Shown here piece after piece: positions 41,241 to 53,614 of a stretch of 64,000 nt of DNA. Made by a program: the position numbers and the translations under genes. Numbering within the stretch: position 1 is the first letter of the stretch; every line of letters starts with the position of its first letter. This DNA is from a virus. The DNA is taken from the IMG/VR virus record IMGVR_UViG_3300017917_002349, positions 64,001 to 128,000 of that record; one strand, written 5' to 3'. Under the pieces are notes generated by a model that saw nothing but the letters and a program-made list of their open reading frames with translations, was not told the origin of the DNA and searched no databases.

Positions 41241-41415
41241 CTGCTCGCTTGATCATCAGTGTGCCACACGCCATGCAGCCAAGTCCAGTGACTGCTACCA
41301 GCACTGACTGTAGGAGCTCTGAGTCAGTGATTGAGTTCTCTACACCGCCTACTGCGAATGCTGTGATGATCATACCTACTATGACGACGAACATGCCCTG
41401 CTTTTCTGTGACCAT
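41221..41415 (-). CDS. Small two-TM membrane protein
   Basis: AGGAGCAC RBS and promoter 41448-41476. Confidence 0.75.
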   Translation of the reverse strand: MVTEKQGMFVVIVGMIITAFAVGGVENSITDSELLQSVLVAVTGLGCMACGTLMIKRAGDGNDY

Positions 41416-46997: not shown

Positions 46998-47061
46998 CTT
47001 CGCTCCTGTTATCTAACTATGACTCAAGTATAGCACCAAAATGGCACCCTGTCAACCAAAA

Positions 47062-47382
47062 TCAACGAGGAATACGAACTACGATGCCCTGTGGCGTAGA
47101 AACAACAGCATAGCCCTTGCTCTCAAGAATGCTCACGGCCTCACGAGCCATGGCGCGATCTCTCTTTATGGCACCCTCAAGTTTCACAGCGATGAATTTC
47201 TTGCGGTAGTTGATGTAGCTCTCAGCGTAGGCGAACGCTGTATCCAAAAGGTCCAGAGCTCGCTGTGCCATGCACTGCTGCTGGGGGGTGTAGGTGCAGG
47301 CCAGTTCTCTGTTGCGGTAGTAGGCATTGAGGGCTGCCCCGCGTTTGTTGTCATCTGCATCACGATAGTTTAGTTGTTTCAT
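47062..47382 (-). CDS. Hypothetical protein
   Basis: AGGAGCGUG RBS, own promoter. Confidence 0.75.
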   Translation of the reverse strand: MKQLNYRDADDNKRGAALNAYYRNRELACTYTPQQQCMAQRALDLLDTAFAYAESYINYRKKFIAVKLEGAIKRDRAMAREAVSILESKGYAVVSTPQGIVVRIPR

Positions 47383-47457
47383 TTCACGCTCCTTATGTTC
47401 ACTGTACCTACAGTATAACACCGAAGAATCAAAATGTCAACCAAAATGTCAAAGACC

Positions 47458-47817
47458 CTAGACTATCAAGGGTTTCTTGTAGGGGTCCCTACGATCACTC
47501 CAGATCTTGTAGCTGTGGTTGGCACGTACCCAATCTGCAAATGTCTGTGGCTCAGTCTTGAACCAGGCCTGGATATCGTCTGGACCAATATCTTCCGTGC
47601 TGGTAAACACGTAGATTTCGTAGTGACGATGCTGGTTATACTGTGCTCGAAGTTTCAGTGCTGTAAGGTTAAAGCCCATGGGCTTCTCTACCTTCTTGCT
47701 TTGTTTTATCGAATCAAACAGATGGTTCTTAGCCCAGTTGTCAGGGTGGTGTTCCGTGATCTCTTCAAAGAACTCCACCCCCTCACAGTCCCAAGAGACT
47801 ATGTAATAACGTGTCAT
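47458..47817 (-). CDS. Hypothetical protein
   Basis: WDCEG, LRAQYN.HRHYEIY. Confidence 0.75.
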   Translation of the reverse strand: MTRYYIVSWDCEGVEFFEEITEHHPDNWAKNHLFDSIKQSKKVEKPMGFNLTALKLRAQYNQHRHYEIYVFTSTEDIGPDDIQAWFKTEPQTFADWVRANHSYKIWSDRRDPYKKPLIV

Positions 47818-47987
47818 GAGTTTACTGTGTTGTGCGGATCGAATTCTTCCTCAGAACCAACTCCATTGGAGTCTAACCATTGATAGATCAGTTCCAGAGG
47901 ACAGTCCAGTTGCAGGGCGATGCTCTTAGGGCCATAGCCCTCGATGTAGAGCTGCTCGATGTCATAGGCTAGATCGCTGAGACTCAT
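47814..47987 (-). CDS. Small HTH-like protein (57 aa, not in ORF track)
   Basis: GYGPKSIALQLDCPLELIYQW; coupled on both sides. Confidence 0.65.
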   Translation of the reverse strand: MSLSDLAYDIEQLYIEGYGPKSIALQLDCPLELIYQWLDSNGVGSEEEFDPHNTVNS

Positions 47988-48109
47988 CGTGCAGTCTCCT
48001 TCATGACTTCCTGGGTCTTACCCACAGCCTTATCGATAGCGGATGCTACGCCTGATACTCCAACAGTGGCCACAAACATACCTGCAATGAATGCCATTAG
48101 AATTTTCAT
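47984..48109 (-). CDS. 41-aa membrane-anchored peptide (not in ORF track)
   Basis: AGGAG RBS; MKILMAFIAGMFVATVG. Confidence 0.7.
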   Translation of the reverse strand: MKILMAFIAGMFVATVGVSGVASAIDKAVGKTQEVMKETAR

Positions 48110-48118
48110 GACTACTCC

Positions 48119-48208
48119 TTAAACAAACGCCCAATAAGAACCTACGGCTATTGCATAAACAGCAACAGCGTAGCCCAACATCTTTAGATCTTCTTTGAAC
48201 AAATCCAT
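48119..48208 (-). CDS. 29-aa hydrophobic peptide (not in ORF track)
   Basis: AGGAGCAA RBS behind promoter 48239-48267. Confidence 0.6.
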   Translation of the reverse strand: MDLFKEDLKMLGYAVAVYAIAVGSYWAFV

Positions 48209-48327
48209 GCTTGCTCCTTGAACATTTACGATACCTATAGTATACAACCAATCTAGGATTTTGTCAACTACGCACACGTATAACAGCGGGGCCTGTAGCT
48301 AAAAAGCCACATCCCCTGGCACTCCTG

Positions 48328-49533
48328 TCAAGCTGTCTCTCTTTCGTAGATCACAGTCTGTCCAAAGGGTGCTTCTGCCTTGTCGTTGCCTTTGACAACG
48401 AATATGGTATCGCAGTAGTCCTCTTCACCCCAACCACCACAAGGGTAGCCGTCCGTGAACATGATAAACTTCTTAGGACGAATGTCATTCTCCTGCATGA
48501 ACTGCCAGTTGACTTCGAAGTCTGTGCCACCACCGCCCTGAGGTTCGTAGTCTAACAGGTCTTCACTGTTATCATGTGTGATCTCTTTGTGGTTATAGAT
48601 CTCTGTGTCAAAGCACCACAGATTGACCTTGAAGTCCTCGAACTGATCCATGATGCCCTTGATCTCGCCTAAGAAAATAGTTGCATCTTCTTCACCGATA
48701 CTACCACTCATGTCCATAGAGACCGCTACGTCGATGGTAGTGGCTTCCTTCATGCCCGGAAGGATAGCACCTGAGTGCATACTCTTGCGATTCACACGCT
48801 GGAAGGAATAGTCATTGCGGACGATGCTTTGGATCTCTTGGCGAACCAACTCGCGCCACGAAATCTTAGGCTCAGTCATAGACTTGATCATACGCATGAT
48901 GCCTGCGGGGGTCTTACCTGCACCAGCGGCCGCGGCACTCTGGATCATAGCCTCTTTGATCTCATCACGGATACGCTGAGCATCTTCCTTGCTCATGCCA
49001 GGACGATTGCCTTTGCCTTCTTTGTCGTCGCCTTCACCACCTTGGCCGTCACCTTCTTTGATGTGCTCGTCAAGCAGATCGCCCAATTGCTTGAGCAGTT
49101 GATCCATAGGGATCTTCTCTGCCTTCTCATAGAGATCGTCGTAGATCTCTTCCCAGGCCATGCCACGGTACTTGGCATCATAGCAGATCTTGACCTGTGT
49201 GATTTTCTCGCCGATACGCTCGTCTACGAGGATCTGGTTCACAGCGAAGTCCTGTGCGATGTTGCTGAGCTGACGATCGCGACTACCAACACGGCCAAAG
49301 TGATCAAACACGCAGTGACAGATCTCGTGACCAAACAGGAATTCAAGTTGTTTAGGCGAGAGCTTCTCTACGAACTTGGTATTGTAGTAAAAGTCTCGTC
49401 CATTGGTTGCGGCAGTAGGACACCACTCGTCTGCGTTAATAAGACGCATACGGGTTGCCATGTTGCCAAAGAAAGGAGCCTTGAGCAGTAGGCCTACTCG
49501 GGCTGTGATAAGTTTTTCTACGATTGGATCCAT
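48328..49533 (-). CDS. Metallopeptidase-vWA protein (DUF2201-like)
   Basis: HEICH, DMSGS MIDAS, GGGTDF, FTDG. Confidence 0.9.
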   Translation of the reverse strand: MDPIVEKLITARVGLLLKAPFFGNMATRMRLINADEWCPTAATNGRDFYYNTKFVEKLSPKQLEFLFGHEICHCVFDHFGRVGSRDRQLSNIAQDFAVNQILVDERIGEKITQVKICYDAKYRGMAWEEIYDDLYEKAEKIPMDQLLKQLGDLLDEHIKEGDGQGGEGDDKEGKGNRPGMSKEDAQRIRDEIKEAMIQSAAAAGAGKTPAGIMRMIKSMTEPKISWRELVRQEIQSIVRNDYSFQRVNRKSMHSGAILPGMKEATTIDVAVSMDMSGSIGEEDATIFLGEIKGIMDQFEDFKVNLWCFDTEIYNHKEITHDNSEDLLDYEPQGGGGTDFEVNWQFMQENDIRPKKFIMFTDGYPCGGWGEEDYCDTIFVVKGNDKAEAPFGQTVIYERETA

Positions 49534-49590
49534 TAGTCGCTCTCCTTACTGTATGTATCTATTATAGCACCTCGGGCCCTAGTTGTCAAC

Positions 49591-49719
49591 CAAAAAGAAA
49601 CCGGGCAGTGTTGCCATACTACAACACCCCCGGCACCCTCCGCCAGTGACTAGATGGCGCGGAAAAGGGTGGGCTAGAGCCCTGGGGAGCCCTAGCCCTA
49701 GGCTACGGTGAGGTCTTAA
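49591..49719 (-). ncRNA. Structured 3'UTR of the MoxR gene with self anti-RBS and terminator
   Basis: UUAAGACCUCAC, then three consecutive hairpins, the last ending in UUUCUUUUU. Confidence 0.6.
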
Positions 49720-50804
49720 TTGTTCTCCATAGCCGTCAACACATACTTGCCGAAACGCTTGTGGAACTCGTCGAAGCTCTGCATCTTGGTAGCGTCAAAG
49801 GGCAGGTTGTAGTTGGTGAGTCCAGTCTTGGCACCCATGACAACCAGCTCAGTCGGGAAGTTATCCATCATGTAGCGGAAGAACAGGTCAGCCTTGTCGT
49901 CAAACTTCTTGTCCTTTTTCTCAGCGGCATCCTTGAGCTCGTAGCAGAGGCTAACGGTCAATGAATACATGGCACTGACTTCTTTGATAGCCAAGTCCTT
50001 GACCTTGCCTTCGAGGATGTCGGAAGCCTTAGGCAATTTGCCTGCGATCTTGCGGTGAGCCATAAACTTCACAGCCAAACCGTCACCGATAGCACCTGCG
50101 ATCAAGTTCTGCAGGGTCTCGTTGTCAGTGTCATCGTCATTGAGCAGGTCGCTGACGAACACCCAAGAACGAGGAGTCGCAAATGACTTGCTAGGGCTCT
50201 TAGGATCGAAGTCATAGAGGTCTTGCTTGGCAAAACCCACATAACCAACGACCTCAGGGTGGATGTCGTTCATAACAGCCCACTCTTGGAAGTCATCGAA
50301 GTCTACCTTCATCTCCAAGTGGACGAAACGGTTTGCCAACGGAGCAGGCATACGGTAGGTAACACCACGGTCGCCTTCACGGTTACCAGCGGCAACGATG
50401 TCCACGCCCTTGGGCAGTTCATAGGTGCCTACACGGCGGTTAAGGATCAACTGATAGGCCGCGGCTTGCACGGCAGGAGGAGCGGAGTTAAGCTCGTCCA
50501 AGAAGATCAATGCAGTGGAGTCTGCATTGGTAGGCAGTTCTGCAGGAGGAGCCCAGACCATCTTGCCCTGCTCTGCATTGTAATAGGGGATGCCCTTGAT
50601 GTCTGTGGGTTCCCAAAGAGCCAGACGAACGTCAATGACCTCACGGTCCATCTCAAGACCGATCTGCTTGACGATATCGCTCTTACCGATACCTGGAGGG
50701 CCCCACAGGAATGTAGGACGGCGAACTTTGATCGCCTTACGGATCGCCTTTTTGGCGCTCTTAGGGCCACATTGACGAACGGAAATATCTTGTGCTTTTG
50801 CCAT
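49716..50804 (-). CDS. MoxR-like AAA+ ATPase
   Basis: GPPGIGKS, FLDELN, AAGN, LANRF, TPRSW; adjacent vWA gene. Confidence 0.92.
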   Translation of the reverse strand: MAKAQDISVRQCGPKSAKKAIRKAIKVRRPTFLWGPPGIGKSDIVKQIGLEMDREVIDVRLALWEPTDIKGIPYYNAEQGKMVWAPPAELPTNADSTALIFLDELNSAPPAVQAAAYQLILNRRVGTYELPKGVDIVAAGNREGDRGVTYRMPAPLANRFVHLEMKVDFDDFQEWAVMNDIHPEVVGYVGFAKQDLYDFDPKSPSKSFATPRSWVFVSDLLNDDDTDNETLQNLIAGAIGDGLAVKFMAHRKIAGKLPKASDILEGKVKDLAIKEVSAMYSLTVSLCYELKDAAEKKDKKFDDKADLFFRYMMDNFPTELVVMGAKTGLTNYNLPFDATKMQSFDEFHKRFGKYVLTAMENN

Positions 50805-50879
50805 TTAAGACCTCACTAAAGTTAGAACAAACAAACTGCTTTCCCAGTATCATTATTGTAGCACCTCTCGGTGCAGTTG

Positions 50880-51515
50880 TCAACCACTGATTTTCACGTA
50901 GTTGAGCTGTGTGGCGCCGTTGCCACGGTGTTGCTTGATCTTGCCCTTGATGCGCACAGTGCCCTGGAGTTCCTTGGTATGCCAGAAATCCACGATGCTG
51001 TCACCCATACGTGCATCCATGCGGTACTTGCCATATTCTGCGTTGTACCGTGTGCGGATCACAGTGACATCACCCACGATGGTATCACCTACAGCGCCCG
51101 GGAGCGGTTGGGAACTGAAGATCTCTCGCTTGAGTTCAGCATGCGCAGCATCACGCAAGGCCACTGAGGGCAAACAGCTGATCACAGCGAAATCGTAGAT
51201 ATCACGACCCGTGAACTCTTCTTTGGCTGCAATCCGCATGGCAGTCTGCTGGAAATCATTCATCTTGCCTGTGAGAGCCAACAGCGTGTATGATTTGAAG
51301 TGATCCCGGGCTGAGCGTCCTGCAGCGTAGTCGGCTTCAGTGATCTGGGTGAAATCGTTGTCGCGGAGCCATTGCTTGACCATGGCTTTGTTGGCTCGCT
51401 TGTCGACCACGTAGCTTTCGTCGATATAACGGCCTTTGTCCTCTTTGAGATACTCACCGTTGATGCGTTGAGCTGCTGCCGCGGCACCCCAAACTTGATC
51501 TGCTGTAAATTGCAT
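50880..51515 (-). CDS. Hypothetical protein with C-terminal OB-fold-like region
   Basis: AGGAGCGAU RBS; TQLNYVK end. Confidence 0.8.
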   Translation of the reverse strand: MQFTADQVWGAAAAAQRINGEYLKEDKGRYIDESYVVDKRANKAMVKQWLRDNDFTQITEADYAAGRSARDHFKSYTLLALTGKMNDFQQTAMRIAAKEEFTGRDIYDFAVISCLPSVALRDAAHAELKREIFSSQPLPGAVGDTIVGDVTVIRTRYNAEYGKYRMDARMGDSIVDFWHTKELQGTVRIKGKIKQHRGNGATQLNYVKISG

Positions 51516-51622
51516 CTATCGCTCCTTGCTATTCACTATACCTCTAGTATACGATCTTTTGGCCCAGTTGTCAACCGTTTTGGGGAGTGCCGGCGGGTGT
51601 GGCTTTTCTGCAACATATGGTC

Positions 51623-51696
51623 AAAAAAACAGGGCCTAGTAAGGCCCTGTCAAAACCGCCCCGGGAGCGAATCGGCTTGGTTTTGAGGAGCGAACC
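51623..51696 (-). ncRNA. 3'UTR anti-RBS hairpin 2 plus intrinsic terminator (candidate regulatory RNA)
   Basis: GUUCGCUCCU, then UCAAAACC/GGUUUUGA outer stem, CCG/CGG inner stem, loop AUUCGCUCC; then ACAGGGCCU/AGGCCCUGU plus U-tract. Confidence 0.72.
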
Positions 51697-51972
51697 TTAG
51701 GCTACGGTCCAACCAGCTGCCTTGGCCATGTAACCAAGTGCTACGATTTCACGGCTGGGTTGACCCAACTCGTACTCAGTGACTGTGACACCGTTGCCTG
51801 CTGTGCGGCTGTTTGCGTAGACAGCATAACCACCTTGACGGATGCGGCTAGCTTCTGCGGCTAGATTCTTTACACCAAAACGCTTGCTGGCCTGAGCGGC
51901 TGTAAGAGTTTCACCATTGTAAAGAGCTTGGAAGACCTTGAAAGTCTTGGTTTCGGGATTGAATCGCTTCAT
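51697..51972 (-). CDS. Winged helix-turn-helix protein
   Basis: GETLTAAQASKRFGVKNL..SRIRQGGY plus beta wing; TTGCAA-17-TATAGT promoter. Confidence 0.75.
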   Translation of the reverse strand: MKRFNPETKTFKVFQALYNGETLTAAQASKRFGVKNLAAEASRIRQGGYAVYANSRTAGNGVTVTEYELGQPSREIVALGYMAKAAGWTVA

Positions 51973-52069
51973 GTTTTTTCCTCTAAATGTTATAGCTGAT
52001 TACTTGTTTTTCAGCGTCCTTATAATATACTATAATCCAAAATATATTGCAAGGATCAATATTACCAAA

Positions 52070-52270
52070 TTACTTTTTACTAACCTTTACGCTGGGCACA
52101 GCCATGATAACAGCCGCAGCCAACCAGGTGTAAAAGGTATAGGGCAGCACATGATTAGGCCAGAGATGCTGTCCAAATTCGTTAATGGCCCAGATAAAGG
52201 CCAATGGCCCAATGGCTACAAAGAACACTACCACAGCCACCAAGCCCACGATAGTCATGAGTTTATTCAT
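52070..52270 (-). CDS. Small membrane protein
   Basis: Two hydrophobic segments. Confidence 0.7.
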   Translation of the reverse strand: MNKLMTIVGLVAVVVFFVAIGPLAFIWAINEFGQHLWPNHVLPYTFYTWLAAAVIMAVPSVKVSKK

Positions 52271-52493
52271 CGTCTTTCTCCTGTGCAGCAGCCAAGGCAG
52301 CGATTTCAGCGTCGATGGCCCGCTCTTTCTTCTTACCAGCCAGTGCAGTGCCTCGCTGATACACCTGCCAATAATGATCCCCGCAGTAGCTCTTGCCCTG
52401 AAGCACAGCTGAACCGCAGTAGTGGATCGAACCCCTTAGGGGGTCCTGATCCGGACCAATCCACTGGCACTCACGGATTGGAATGTCTACCAT
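52263..52493 (-). CDS. Small Cys/His protein (GcrA C-terminal-like motif)
   Basis: CQWIG..YCG..SYC..H. Confidence 0.6.
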   Translation of the reverse strand: MVDIPIRECQWIGPDQDPLRGSIHYCGSAVLQGKSYCGDHYWQVYQRGTALAGKKKERAIDAEIAALAAAQEKDDE

Positions 52494-53614
52494 TAATGCA
52501 TCCCCTTCATAACAGTTACGCGAGCATGACCTTCCCAATTGCTGGGGAACGCCTTGCGCAGTTGTGCTACTTTGAGCACGGTACGTAGGCTGAGTTCACG
52601 CATGCTGGCACGATTGGTCTCGATGAAATTAACCACTTCGTCCTTGGCGATGTCCTCAAGCTCGTAGTCATCTAACATACCGTCCTTGACGATCTGCTTG
52701 ATGCGCAAGACCTTCTCGCGGTCAGTGTCCATGCGCAGATCGATGTAGTGGCAACGGCTTTCAAGAGCGGCAAGGTGATCCTGCAGTTTCTTAGAACGCA
52801 CATTCTCAAACTTCAAGTTAGTGATAAAGATAGCACCACCCTTGAACTCGAAACGATCTGGAATACCCTCGCTTCGCAGGATACGGCTGTCAGTGTTCCA
52901 CGAGATAGTACGCTTCTTGGAACTGTCCAGGGCCGCTTTTAAAATATTAAGCGAGATGTCGTCCAAAAGAATGCTGTCACAGTCGTCAAACACAAGAATG
53001 CTCTTAGAGTCTGAGAACTTGTAGAGCTTAGAGTACAGACCAATGGCACTCATAGCACCCTTGACGATCTCGTACTTGGGCTTGCGTTCGCCTAGCGTGT
53101 TGAACAGATCGTCCTTAGACAGTACTTCTTCAACACCAAAGCTCTTGCCCACACCAGGAGGGCCTGTGACGATCATGGCACGTACATCGCCTGCTTTCAC
53201 AGCCTTGGTCATGTCCTTGAGGATCTCAAAACGCACACGGGTACGCTCGATGATCTGTTCATCGGTCTCGTGTGCTACAGCAGAGTCAGCGACCTTGATC
53301 TGTGTGAAGTCTGTGACCTCGGCACCCTTGGTGCTCTTGTTCTTGAGCGCAGTCAACATGCTGACAGCCTGGGGCTGGCGAGTGGCCTGTACAGTACCTT
53401 CCACGGCATAGTCTCCTTGACGGCAACGGATGCGGATTGAACGATCTGGGAACGGGATACTGCCTGCGGGACTTACGCTGGTACCATCGACAGTGACATA
53501 GCCTTCGCCCGTCTTTGAGACCTTGTAGTCTTCGACCAACTCGAATGAATAGCCGGCAACATTAGTGGGTTGACCCTTGATGTTGTACCAGCCCTCGGTG
53601 AAAGTAATACGCAT
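52493..53614 (-). CDS. P-loop/AAA ATPase
   Basis: GPPGVGKS, VFDDCD, FITN, ALESR; AGGAGCGAAA RBS. Confidence 0.85.
   Translation of the reverse strand: MRITFTEGWYNIKGQPTNVAGYSFELVEDYKVSKTGEGYVTVDGTSVSPAGSIPFPDRSIRIRCRQGDYAVEGTVQATRQPQAVSMLTALKNKSTKGAEVTDFTQIKVADSAVAHETDEQIIERTRVRFEILKDMTKAVKAGDVRAMIVTGPPGVGKSFGVEEVLSKDDLFNTLGERKPKYEIVKGAMSAIGLYSKLYKFSDSKSILVFDDCDSILLDDISLNILKAALDSSKKRTISWNTDSRILRSEGIPDRFEFKGGAIFITNLKFENVRSKKLQDHLAALESRCHYIDLRMDTDREKVLRIKQIVKDGMLDDYELEDIAKDEVVNFIETNRASMRELSLRTVLKVAQLRKAFPSNWEGHARVTVMKGMH

Follow-up and report, generated by a model that had tools for sequence, protein, structure and literature searches.

Comparative evidence that the stop region of a giant-phage MoxR message pairs with its own ribosome-binding site

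Pairing of an mRNA's 3′ end with the 5′ leader of the same molecule is known from only three bacterial messages, RNAIII/hld, icaR, and hbs, and whether such a 5′–3′ mechanism extends to further bacterial genes was left by a 2021 review as a question that remains to be investigated (PMC7821165). In icaR of S. aureus (Ruiz de los Mozos et al. 2013), a motif of the 3′ untranslated region (UTR) pairs with the Shine-Dalgarno (SD) sequence, blocks the initiation complex, and makes an RNase III site (PMC3868564). In hbs of Bacillus subtilis (Braun et al. 2017), a 14-bp helix that joins the 5′ UTR to the 3′ UTR lies over an RNase Y site and makes the message more stable (PMC5737220), while in RNAIII/hld 5′–3′ pairing delays translation (PMC7821165). 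None of the three pairings has strong phylogenetic support. A further candidate is described here, the gene of a MoxR-like AAA+ ATPase in a 64,000-nt stretch of viral DNA (hereafter the window; bases 64001–128000 of the 162-kb IMG/VR virus record IMGVR_UViG_3300017917_002349). Near the 3′ end of its predicted mRNA, a hairpin loop that usually included the stop codon was complementary to the gene's own ribosome-binding site (RBS), and the resulting duplex (helix B) was retained, with compensatory changes, throughout a clade of related phages. A literature search found no description of a double-stranded DNA (dsDNA) phage message that pairs its own 5′ and 3′ ends.

The MoxR locus and icaR shared a motif at the mRNA 3′ end that pairs with the own SD region and is anti-SD-like and C-rich (UCCCCUG in icaR and GACCUC in MoxR); in the window, 12 of 12 nt of the 3′-terminal MoxR segment complemented the gene's own SD region, and natural compensatory changes on both arms, the stop codon included, marked the pairing as real. 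MoxR differed from icaR in that (i) it belonged to a dsDNA phage; (ii) its anti-RBS usually spanned the stop codon, whereas that of icaR lies deep in a 390-nt 3′ UTR; (iii) its anti-RBS covered the SD and the entire spacer (9–13 nt) and sat in the loop of a covarying hairpin; (iv) it had a probable second contact, from the 5′ end to the terminator loop; and (v) its pairing was backed by extensive compensatory evolution, while conservation of the icaR pairing does not extend even to S. epidermidis (PMC7821165). With hbs, the locus shared a long-range helix of similar length between two UTRs of one mRNA, but the hbs helix leaves the SD unmasked, while in MoxR the SD itself was the target.

The 12-mer GTGAGGTCTTAA (50816–50805, minus strand) abutted the start codon ATG (50804–50802), and its exact complement TTAAGACCTCAC (49719–49708, minus strand) spanned the stop codon TAA (49718–49716). 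In the predicted mRNA, the 5′ arm of helix B (GUGAGGUCUUAA, 50805–50816, minus strand) consisted of the SD GAGGU (50814–50810) plus the whole spacer to the AUG, and the 3′ arm, or anti-RBS (UUAAGACCUCAC, 49708–49719, minus strand), included the stop codon UAA (49718–49716). The 162-kb record contained just two exact copies of the 12-mer, the RBS and stop sites, and ~120 nt of hairpins plus terminator followed the MoxR stop codon on its 3′ side. A perfect 12-nt repeat pairing the stop region of this gene with its own RBS, and stacked hairpins with a terminator behind the stop, had both been claimed by the original prediction, and both were confirmed at these positions.

Within spans of 1.5 kb, the window had 15 perfect inverted repeats that were 12 nt or longer, versus 6.0 ± 2.2 in Markov resamples (~2.5-fold), so that the 12-nt length alone was unremarkable and the placement was what stood out. 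Other repeats of this class were located at 41355/41816, 28036/29148, and 16524/17866, among others. When the RBS window of each of the 212 crude open reading frames (ORFs) of the record was compared with its own stop window, 12 nt was reached in MoxR alone, and a wider 3′ UTR window gave the same outcome; the next-best own-RBS/own-stop match was 10 nt and composed of A and T only. Of 20,000 mismatched gene pairs, 12 had a match of 10 nt or more, and a 12-nt match was absent from all of them. A chance origin was rejected, since placement, conservation, and covariation all went beyond background even though the raw repeat length was ordinary. The genome-wide scan proposed in the original prediction, of the RBS of every gene against its own stop, accordingly recovered MoxR and nothing else: no other ORF of the 162-kb record had an own-RBS/own-stop complement above background, and a genome-wide rule was rejected.

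Three further observations concerned the surroundings of the repeat. A 15-nt perfect inverted repeat linked the MoxR coding sequence (CDS) at 50660–50674 (IVKQI codons near Walker A) with the CDS of the adjoining VWA-domain partner gene at 49067–49081; the two mRNAs would be complementary there, at least 10 nt was kept in only 7 of 37 unique loci, within conserved coding motifs, and this repeat was probably a coincidence plus coding constraint. An anti-RBS aimed at the RBS of the downstream VWA gene was rejected: inspection gave a match of 4 nt only, and a terminator and that gene's own promoter intervened. Rfam covariance models applied to 47000–53000 detected no known RNA family and nothing resembling hok/sok, the only hit being a chance match to a long noncoding RNA (E 0.39).

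The sequence comparison was applied to MoxR homologs from two IMG/VR scans, which gave 160 loci and, after removal of duplicates, 71 unique ingroup loci; the ingroup proteins were ~80–93% identical to the window protein, and the aligned loci had a mean column identity of 76%. All loci were metagenomic, and the parsimony counts given below assume the CDS tree; recombination could inflate or deflate them. The duplex was kept in 71 of 71 loci with a perfect core of 5–13 nt (at least 8 nt in most). In the first set, all 46 unique variants had a perfect own-RBS/own-stop complement of 7–13 nt (mean 10.2 nt), and RNAduplex, run on 70 of the 71 ingroup loci, returned best duplexes averaging 11.6 pairs and −17.1 kcal/mol. 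Gene order and orientation were constant across all loci.

At least 16 distinct helix B sequences were present in the ingroup, each of them complementary inside its own locus: short compensatory variants included GUGAGG/CCUCAC, GCGAGG/CCUCGC, ACGAGG/CCUCGU, GGAGG/CCUCC, and AGAGG/CCUCU, and further ones included GAGUGAGGAAG/CUUCCUCACUC, AGAGGUUA/UAACCUCU, AGGGGUCUUA/UAAGACCCCU, and GGAGAGGUCA/UGACCUCUCC. The stop codon itself covaried with the triplet preceding the AUG (UAA, UAG, or UGA matched by UUA, CUA, or UCA): UAA went with ...GGUCUUAA before the AUG, UAG with ...GGUCUAG, and UGA with ...GGUCUCA or ...GGUCA. When arms were swapped between loci, every divergent 5′ arm paired best with the 3′ arm of its own locus. 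In alignment A1, 6 of 10 helix B pairs had changes on both sides, and the whole structure (helix B, hairpin 1, and terminator stem) gave a covariation of 0.211 compared to 0.102 after shuffling (0 of 500 shuffles as high) and to at most 0.061 with the partner slid. In motif-anchored counts, the three positions that follow the GAGGUC core were paired in 54–56 of 57 sequences, and changes on the two sides fell at the same places on the gene tree. At its outermost positions, helix B was paired only about half the time, which indicated a core of ~9 bp that is variably extended. Relatives at 72–74% identity had no RBS/stop complementarity (they were AT-rich with a plain terminator after the stop), nor did phage PA5oct, and the pairing is therefore an innovation of one clade. 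As judged from these aligned loci, helix B was shown to be under purifying selection with compensatory evolution, and the comparative evidence for RNA-level pairing between the stop region and the own RBS was decisive.

The anti-RBS was carried by hairpin 1 (49701–49734, minus strand), composed of the stem GGCUAUGG/CCGUAGCC and an 18-nt loop with the stop codon plus the anti-RBS. The 5′ strand of the stem lay in the codons just before the stop (Ala-Met plus the first base of Glu), and the 3′ strand lay after the anti-RBS. In 49 of 52 sequences, the Ala wobble base was in a Watson-Crick pair with the base opposite it, with ~22 compensatory events on the tree, and all four pair types were used (pair 1163–1217: UA, AU, CG, and GC). 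Local folding left the anti-RBS at least 70% unpaired, as a loop, in 57 of 70 unique homologs, and these models showed its display in a hairpin loop. In a few lineages (L068, L119, L149, L144, and L106) the anti-RBS was located 3–21 nt downstream of the stop codon and was still retained, in L068 within a separate hairpin loop of its own; overlap with the stop codon was thus usual and not obligatory. On the evidence of these alignments, the conserved principle is a 3′ hairpin loop that presents the complement to the gene's own RBS.

A second contact (helix A) was recognised at the outer ends of the message. The predicted transcript start ACUG(A/G)GAA, seven nt past the −10 box, was complementary to UUC(U/C)CAG, the apical loop of the hairpin following hairpin 1. 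In the window, the start ACUGGGAA (50841–50848, minus strand; +1 seven nt after the −10 box) contained the 5′ arm CUGGG (50847–50843), and the apical CCCAG (49686–49682) of hairpin 2 was the 3′ arm. The variable position (ACUG(A/G)G versus C(U/C)CAG) was concordant in 58 of 58 sequences with both motifs (49 A-U and 9 G-C), and parsimony gave 7 changes on each side, 7 of them joint. Both motifs, that of the start after the promoter and that of the terminator loop, were unique to MoxR in the 162-kb record. Covariation of this kind makes pairing of the mRNA 5′ end with the terminator loop, over 5–8 bp, probable. The two helices were nested in the order 5′-A...B...ORF...B′...A′-3′, and the message would accordingly form a panhandle.

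Folding of the predicted 1,253-nt window transcript (WIN) gave a minimum free energy structure containing the 12-bp helix B with pair probabilities of 0.86–0.997, and among 12 diverse homolog mRNAs the helix B probability was at least 0.94 in 7. In nascent prefixes of 80–1,125 nt, the segment from SD to AUG was 31–55% unpaired, dropping to 8% once the 3′ arm was included; an SD open in nascent prefixes and closed with the 3′ arm fits a message that is translatable during synthesis and shut on completion. Helix B, at 9–13 bp plus flanking pairs, was shorter than a canonical RNase III substrate.

We consider it fairly probable that the two ends of the MoxR mRNA come together and cover the site where its translation starts, as an icaR-like 5′–3′ lock working mainly in cis. 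The 3′-terminal hairpin loop, usually with the stop codon, would complement the own SD plus spacer through helix B, the first nucleotides of the transcript would join the apical terminator loop in helix A, and the RBS would be accessible during transcription and sequestered once the 3′ end exists. Such sequestration on completion would yield a limited, self-gated amount of protein per transcript from a very strong consensus promoter. Our inference is that helix B is made in vivo and reduces translation initiation, as the icaR pairing does; its action would be mainly in cis, or possibly in trans, the sequence being compatible with both. End-to-end pairing at the RNA level by a gene-specific anti-RBS, which the original prediction had put forward together with a check of MoxR homologs for compensatory changes at both ends, found strong support in conservation (complementarity kept in 71 of 71 ingroup loci), in the compensatory changes themselves, in the hairpin-loop display, and in the difference between full-length and nascent folding. 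Several points weigh against an end-to-end lock: (i) five lineages had a perfect complement of just 5–6 nt; (ii) the predicted helix B probability was below 0.5 in 5 of the 12 homolog mRNAs (0.19–0.46 in three and ~0 in two); (iii) RNAfold cannot treat the hairpin 1 loop and helix B jointly, because together they form a pseudoknot; (iv) the transcription start and the terminators of MoxR are predictions; (v) no terminator was present between MoxR and the 211-aa gene upstream of it, so that longer read-through transcripts must exist, in which the 5′ arm of helix A is internal; and (vi) the formal pair count for helix A in the untailored alignment A1, where rows with long 5′ UTRs were truncated or misaligned and some rows had a different terminator, was marginal (covariation 0.130 versus 0.106, 28 of 500 shuffles as high), which leaves helix A probable and not established.

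Other explanations were weighed against the same data. A released or stable 3′ fragment, consisting of hairpin 1 and the terminator hairpin, might act in trans, its two loops attaching to other MoxR mRNAs at their RBS and 5′ end, i.e., as a dose-dependent autoregulatory small RNA derived from the 3′ UTR and similar to OppZ/CarZ. OppZ and CarZ of Vibrio cholerae (Hoyos et al. 2020, cited in PMC7821165) offer a precedent in which a 3′-terminal mRNA piece with a seed complementary to an RBS of its own transcript exerts private negative feedback; RNase E sets these small RNAs free, and with Hfq they work in trans on an operon's internal cistron, whereas for MoxR release and trans action would be hypothetical. 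An anti-RBS in a hairpin loop is the classical antisense design, the loop was wholly downstream of the stop in some lineages, and the same phages carried general anti-leader loops in other 3′ UTRs, which must act in trans because the own RBS of the gene bearing them differs. No internal promoter was found near the MoxR 3′ end, intramolecular pairing was predicted at P ~1 and would be kinetically favoured, and the nesting of helix B within helix A suits a panhandle, so that a mainly trans-acting fragment appears unlikely. The fate of the mRNA might be the target instead, with the end pairing protecting against cleavage that depends on the 5′ end or takes place in the leader, or else storing a dormant stable message that is activated by 3′ trimming or another trigger and thereby delaying MoxR synthesis. 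Sequestration of the extreme 5′ end by helix A and the position of the gene in an early-promoter array speak for this explanation, as do the 14-bp 5′/3′ interaction that shields hbs from RNase Y (PMC5737220) and the 5′–3′ contact through which delta-hemolysin translation is delayed (PMC7821165). The coverage of exactly SD plus spacer by helix B points to translation control, the support for helix A is the weaker of the two, and no activating element was identified, which together make a role in message fate a rather unlikely one. In the hok mRNA, the fbi/tac fold-back closes the full-length transcript by 5′–3′ pairing and keeps it inert until its 3′ end changes, and this pairing is not known to cover the SD directly. 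MoxR shares with hok and RNAIII the closure of a full-length transcript by 5′–3′ pairing but stands outside any toxin-antitoxin context: the product is an AAA+ ATPase and not a toxin, neither an antisense RNA nor a 3′-processing signal for trimming was identified, and there was no hok/sok-like Rfam match.

Two more explanations concerned the ribosome and the DNA. Because hairpin 1 and helix B take in the stop and the codons just before it, a ribosome that terminates there would melt the lock and free the adjacent RBS, and new ribosomes would then load only as one finishes. In the Min Jou interaction of MS2/Qbeta, an RBS is closed by a distant coding segment and opened by ribosomes translating that segment; MoxR would be an 'auto' version of the long-range coupling between MS2 coat and replicase, with the difference that one gene gates another in MS2, while the end of the MoxR gene would gate its own start. 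Self-coupling of this type would account for the stop codon and the AUG lying at the same end of the helix, for the overlap between anti-RBS and stop codon that the majority of the 71 unique loci have, and for the coding nature of the 5′ strand of the hairpin 1 stem; the retention of the anti-RBS 3–21 nt past the stop in the five lineages named above makes the overlap non-essential, and we give this explanation a small chance. At the DNA level, the arms might be paired operator sites bracketing the gene, both read by one protein, or terminal inverted repeats of a mobile cassette: an inverted repeat in dsDNA is one site present twice, and other palindromic elements occur near promoters in this region. 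The arms coincided with the SD plus spacer and with an RNA hairpin loop, the hairpin 1 stem covaried at a synonymous codon position, G-U wobble variants were tolerated, arm length, register, and position shifted among close relatives, at least 16 arm variants were found among phages with >80% identical proteins, no inverted or transposed copy was found in any locus with gene order constant, and the record contained no further copy. The operator or transposon explanation was disfavoured on these grounds, chiefly the synonymous-site covariation of hairpin 1, the G-U variants, the shifting arms, and the constant gene order, and is very improbable.

Anti-leader hairpins of a shared type were found in the same clade. 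GGAGCG preceded 11 starts in the window, and the hairpin CCGAUUCGCUCCCGG located 3′ of the winged helix-turn-helix (wHTH) gene (window 51655–51675, minus strand), whose loop complements the shared early leader GGAGCGA, was present in all but two of 47 unique homolog variants with varying flanks. The wHTH 3′ UTR of the window phage contained a second copy, UUCGCUCCUC, at ~51687. These general hairpins and MoxR had in common a loop showing the complement of an early-gene RBS, with loop and RBS changing together; the general loops AUUCGCUCC address a leader shared by several genes and stand behind other genes, while MoxR lacked the shared leader and combined a private RBS with a private loop on the same message. 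It had also been claimed that the wHTH gene's 3′ UTR matches the complement of its own RBS at 8 of 9 positions; this match (UCCUCAAAA versus UUUAGAGGA) was present in the window but was not conserved (an own-RBS/3′ UTR complement of only 4–7 nt over the 47 unique variants), and the conserved anti-leader hairpin of the general type had the cited motif in its outer stem, so that a private wHTH pair was rejected. A broader, speculative scheme, which we consider doubtful, is an addressable code of RBS and anti-RBS in 3′ hairpin loops: silencing of the common early leader would fall to a shared loop, private RBS 'barcodes', each with its complement on its own message, would serve genes like MoxR, the finished transcript would lock itself by two contacts, and terminating ribosomes could re-open the start, making a ribosome counter or timer for a single mRNA.

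The 162-kb record was estimated to be 46% complete, and its source is therefore a giant phage. The MoxR CDS (49716–50804, minus strand) encoded 362 aa with matches to AAA_5 (33 bits, cut-off 22) and AAA_3 (29.4 bits, cut-off 27), both of them MoxR-type families, and to the phrog_1297 ATPase (E 5e-102); its score for bpMoxR was 22.8 bits, below the cut-off of 27. It had a single AAA_3/AAA_5-type module and an adjoining VWA-domain partner, as is typical of MoxR-type AAA+ proteins: the next gene (49533–48328) was the expected MoxR partner, with a DUF2201_N metallopeptidase domain (E 2e-38) plus a VWA-like DUF2201 domain (E 4e-15). The locus belonged to an array of short minus-strand transcription units, every one of which had a near-consensus TTGACA-N17-TATAAT promoter. 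This early array (window 41–56 kb) was richer in G+C than the rest of the record, and nearly all of its genes were preceded by a perfect or near-perfect sigma-70 consensus promoter (in 10 kb, 12 promoters matched at 11 or more of 12 positions), while many other genes of the record had AT-rich leaders.

The sigma-70-type promoter of MoxR (50855–50883, minus strand; TTGACA, 17 nt, TG-n-TACAAT) matched the consensus at 11 of 12 positions, and in homologs its −10 box lay at a fixed distance from the ACTGRG motif. The TGA stop of the upstream 211-aa gene (51515–50880, no Pfam match) overlapped the −35 hexamer of this promoter (window 50878–50883). Downstream of hairpin 1, the following elements were arranged in order on the minus strand: (i) hairpin 2 (49663–49698; GGGCUAGGGCUC-CCCA-GGGCUCUAGCCC, then ACCCUUUU), whose stem covaried and which was the intrinsic terminator in most homologs; (ii) hairpin 3 (49641–49660; GCGCCA...UGGCG), an extra 3′ UTR hairpin present here and in some relatives; (iii) a predicted distal intrinsic terminator (49592–49633; CCGGGGGUGUUG...CAACACUGCCCGG, then a U-tract); and (iv) the consensus promoter of the next gene (49561–49589), at which the MoxR transcription unit ended. 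A palindrome at window 49601–49633 (copy at 49609) was the stem of the distal MoxR terminator (GGGGGUGUUG...CAACAC), and reading it as an operator is compatible with reading it as a terminator. The predicted promoter and the hairpin/U-tract terminators bracketed both arms of helix B and were conserved in homologs, which places the two arms in one predicted transcription unit.

The MoxR pairing would join the few known cases as one for which nature has left dozens of compensatory changes, among them the choice of stop codon. The phage group is abundant in metagenomes (>8,000 homologous proteins, contigs up to ~370 kb), and the locus offers a clean, mutable test system with two short arms and one reporter. 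It addresses how end-to-end pairing may gate translation, how terminating ribosomes may feed back on initiation, and how a phage may dose single proteins when all genes share the same maximal promoter; more generally, long-range RNA structure can constrain synonymous sites and the identity of the stop codon.

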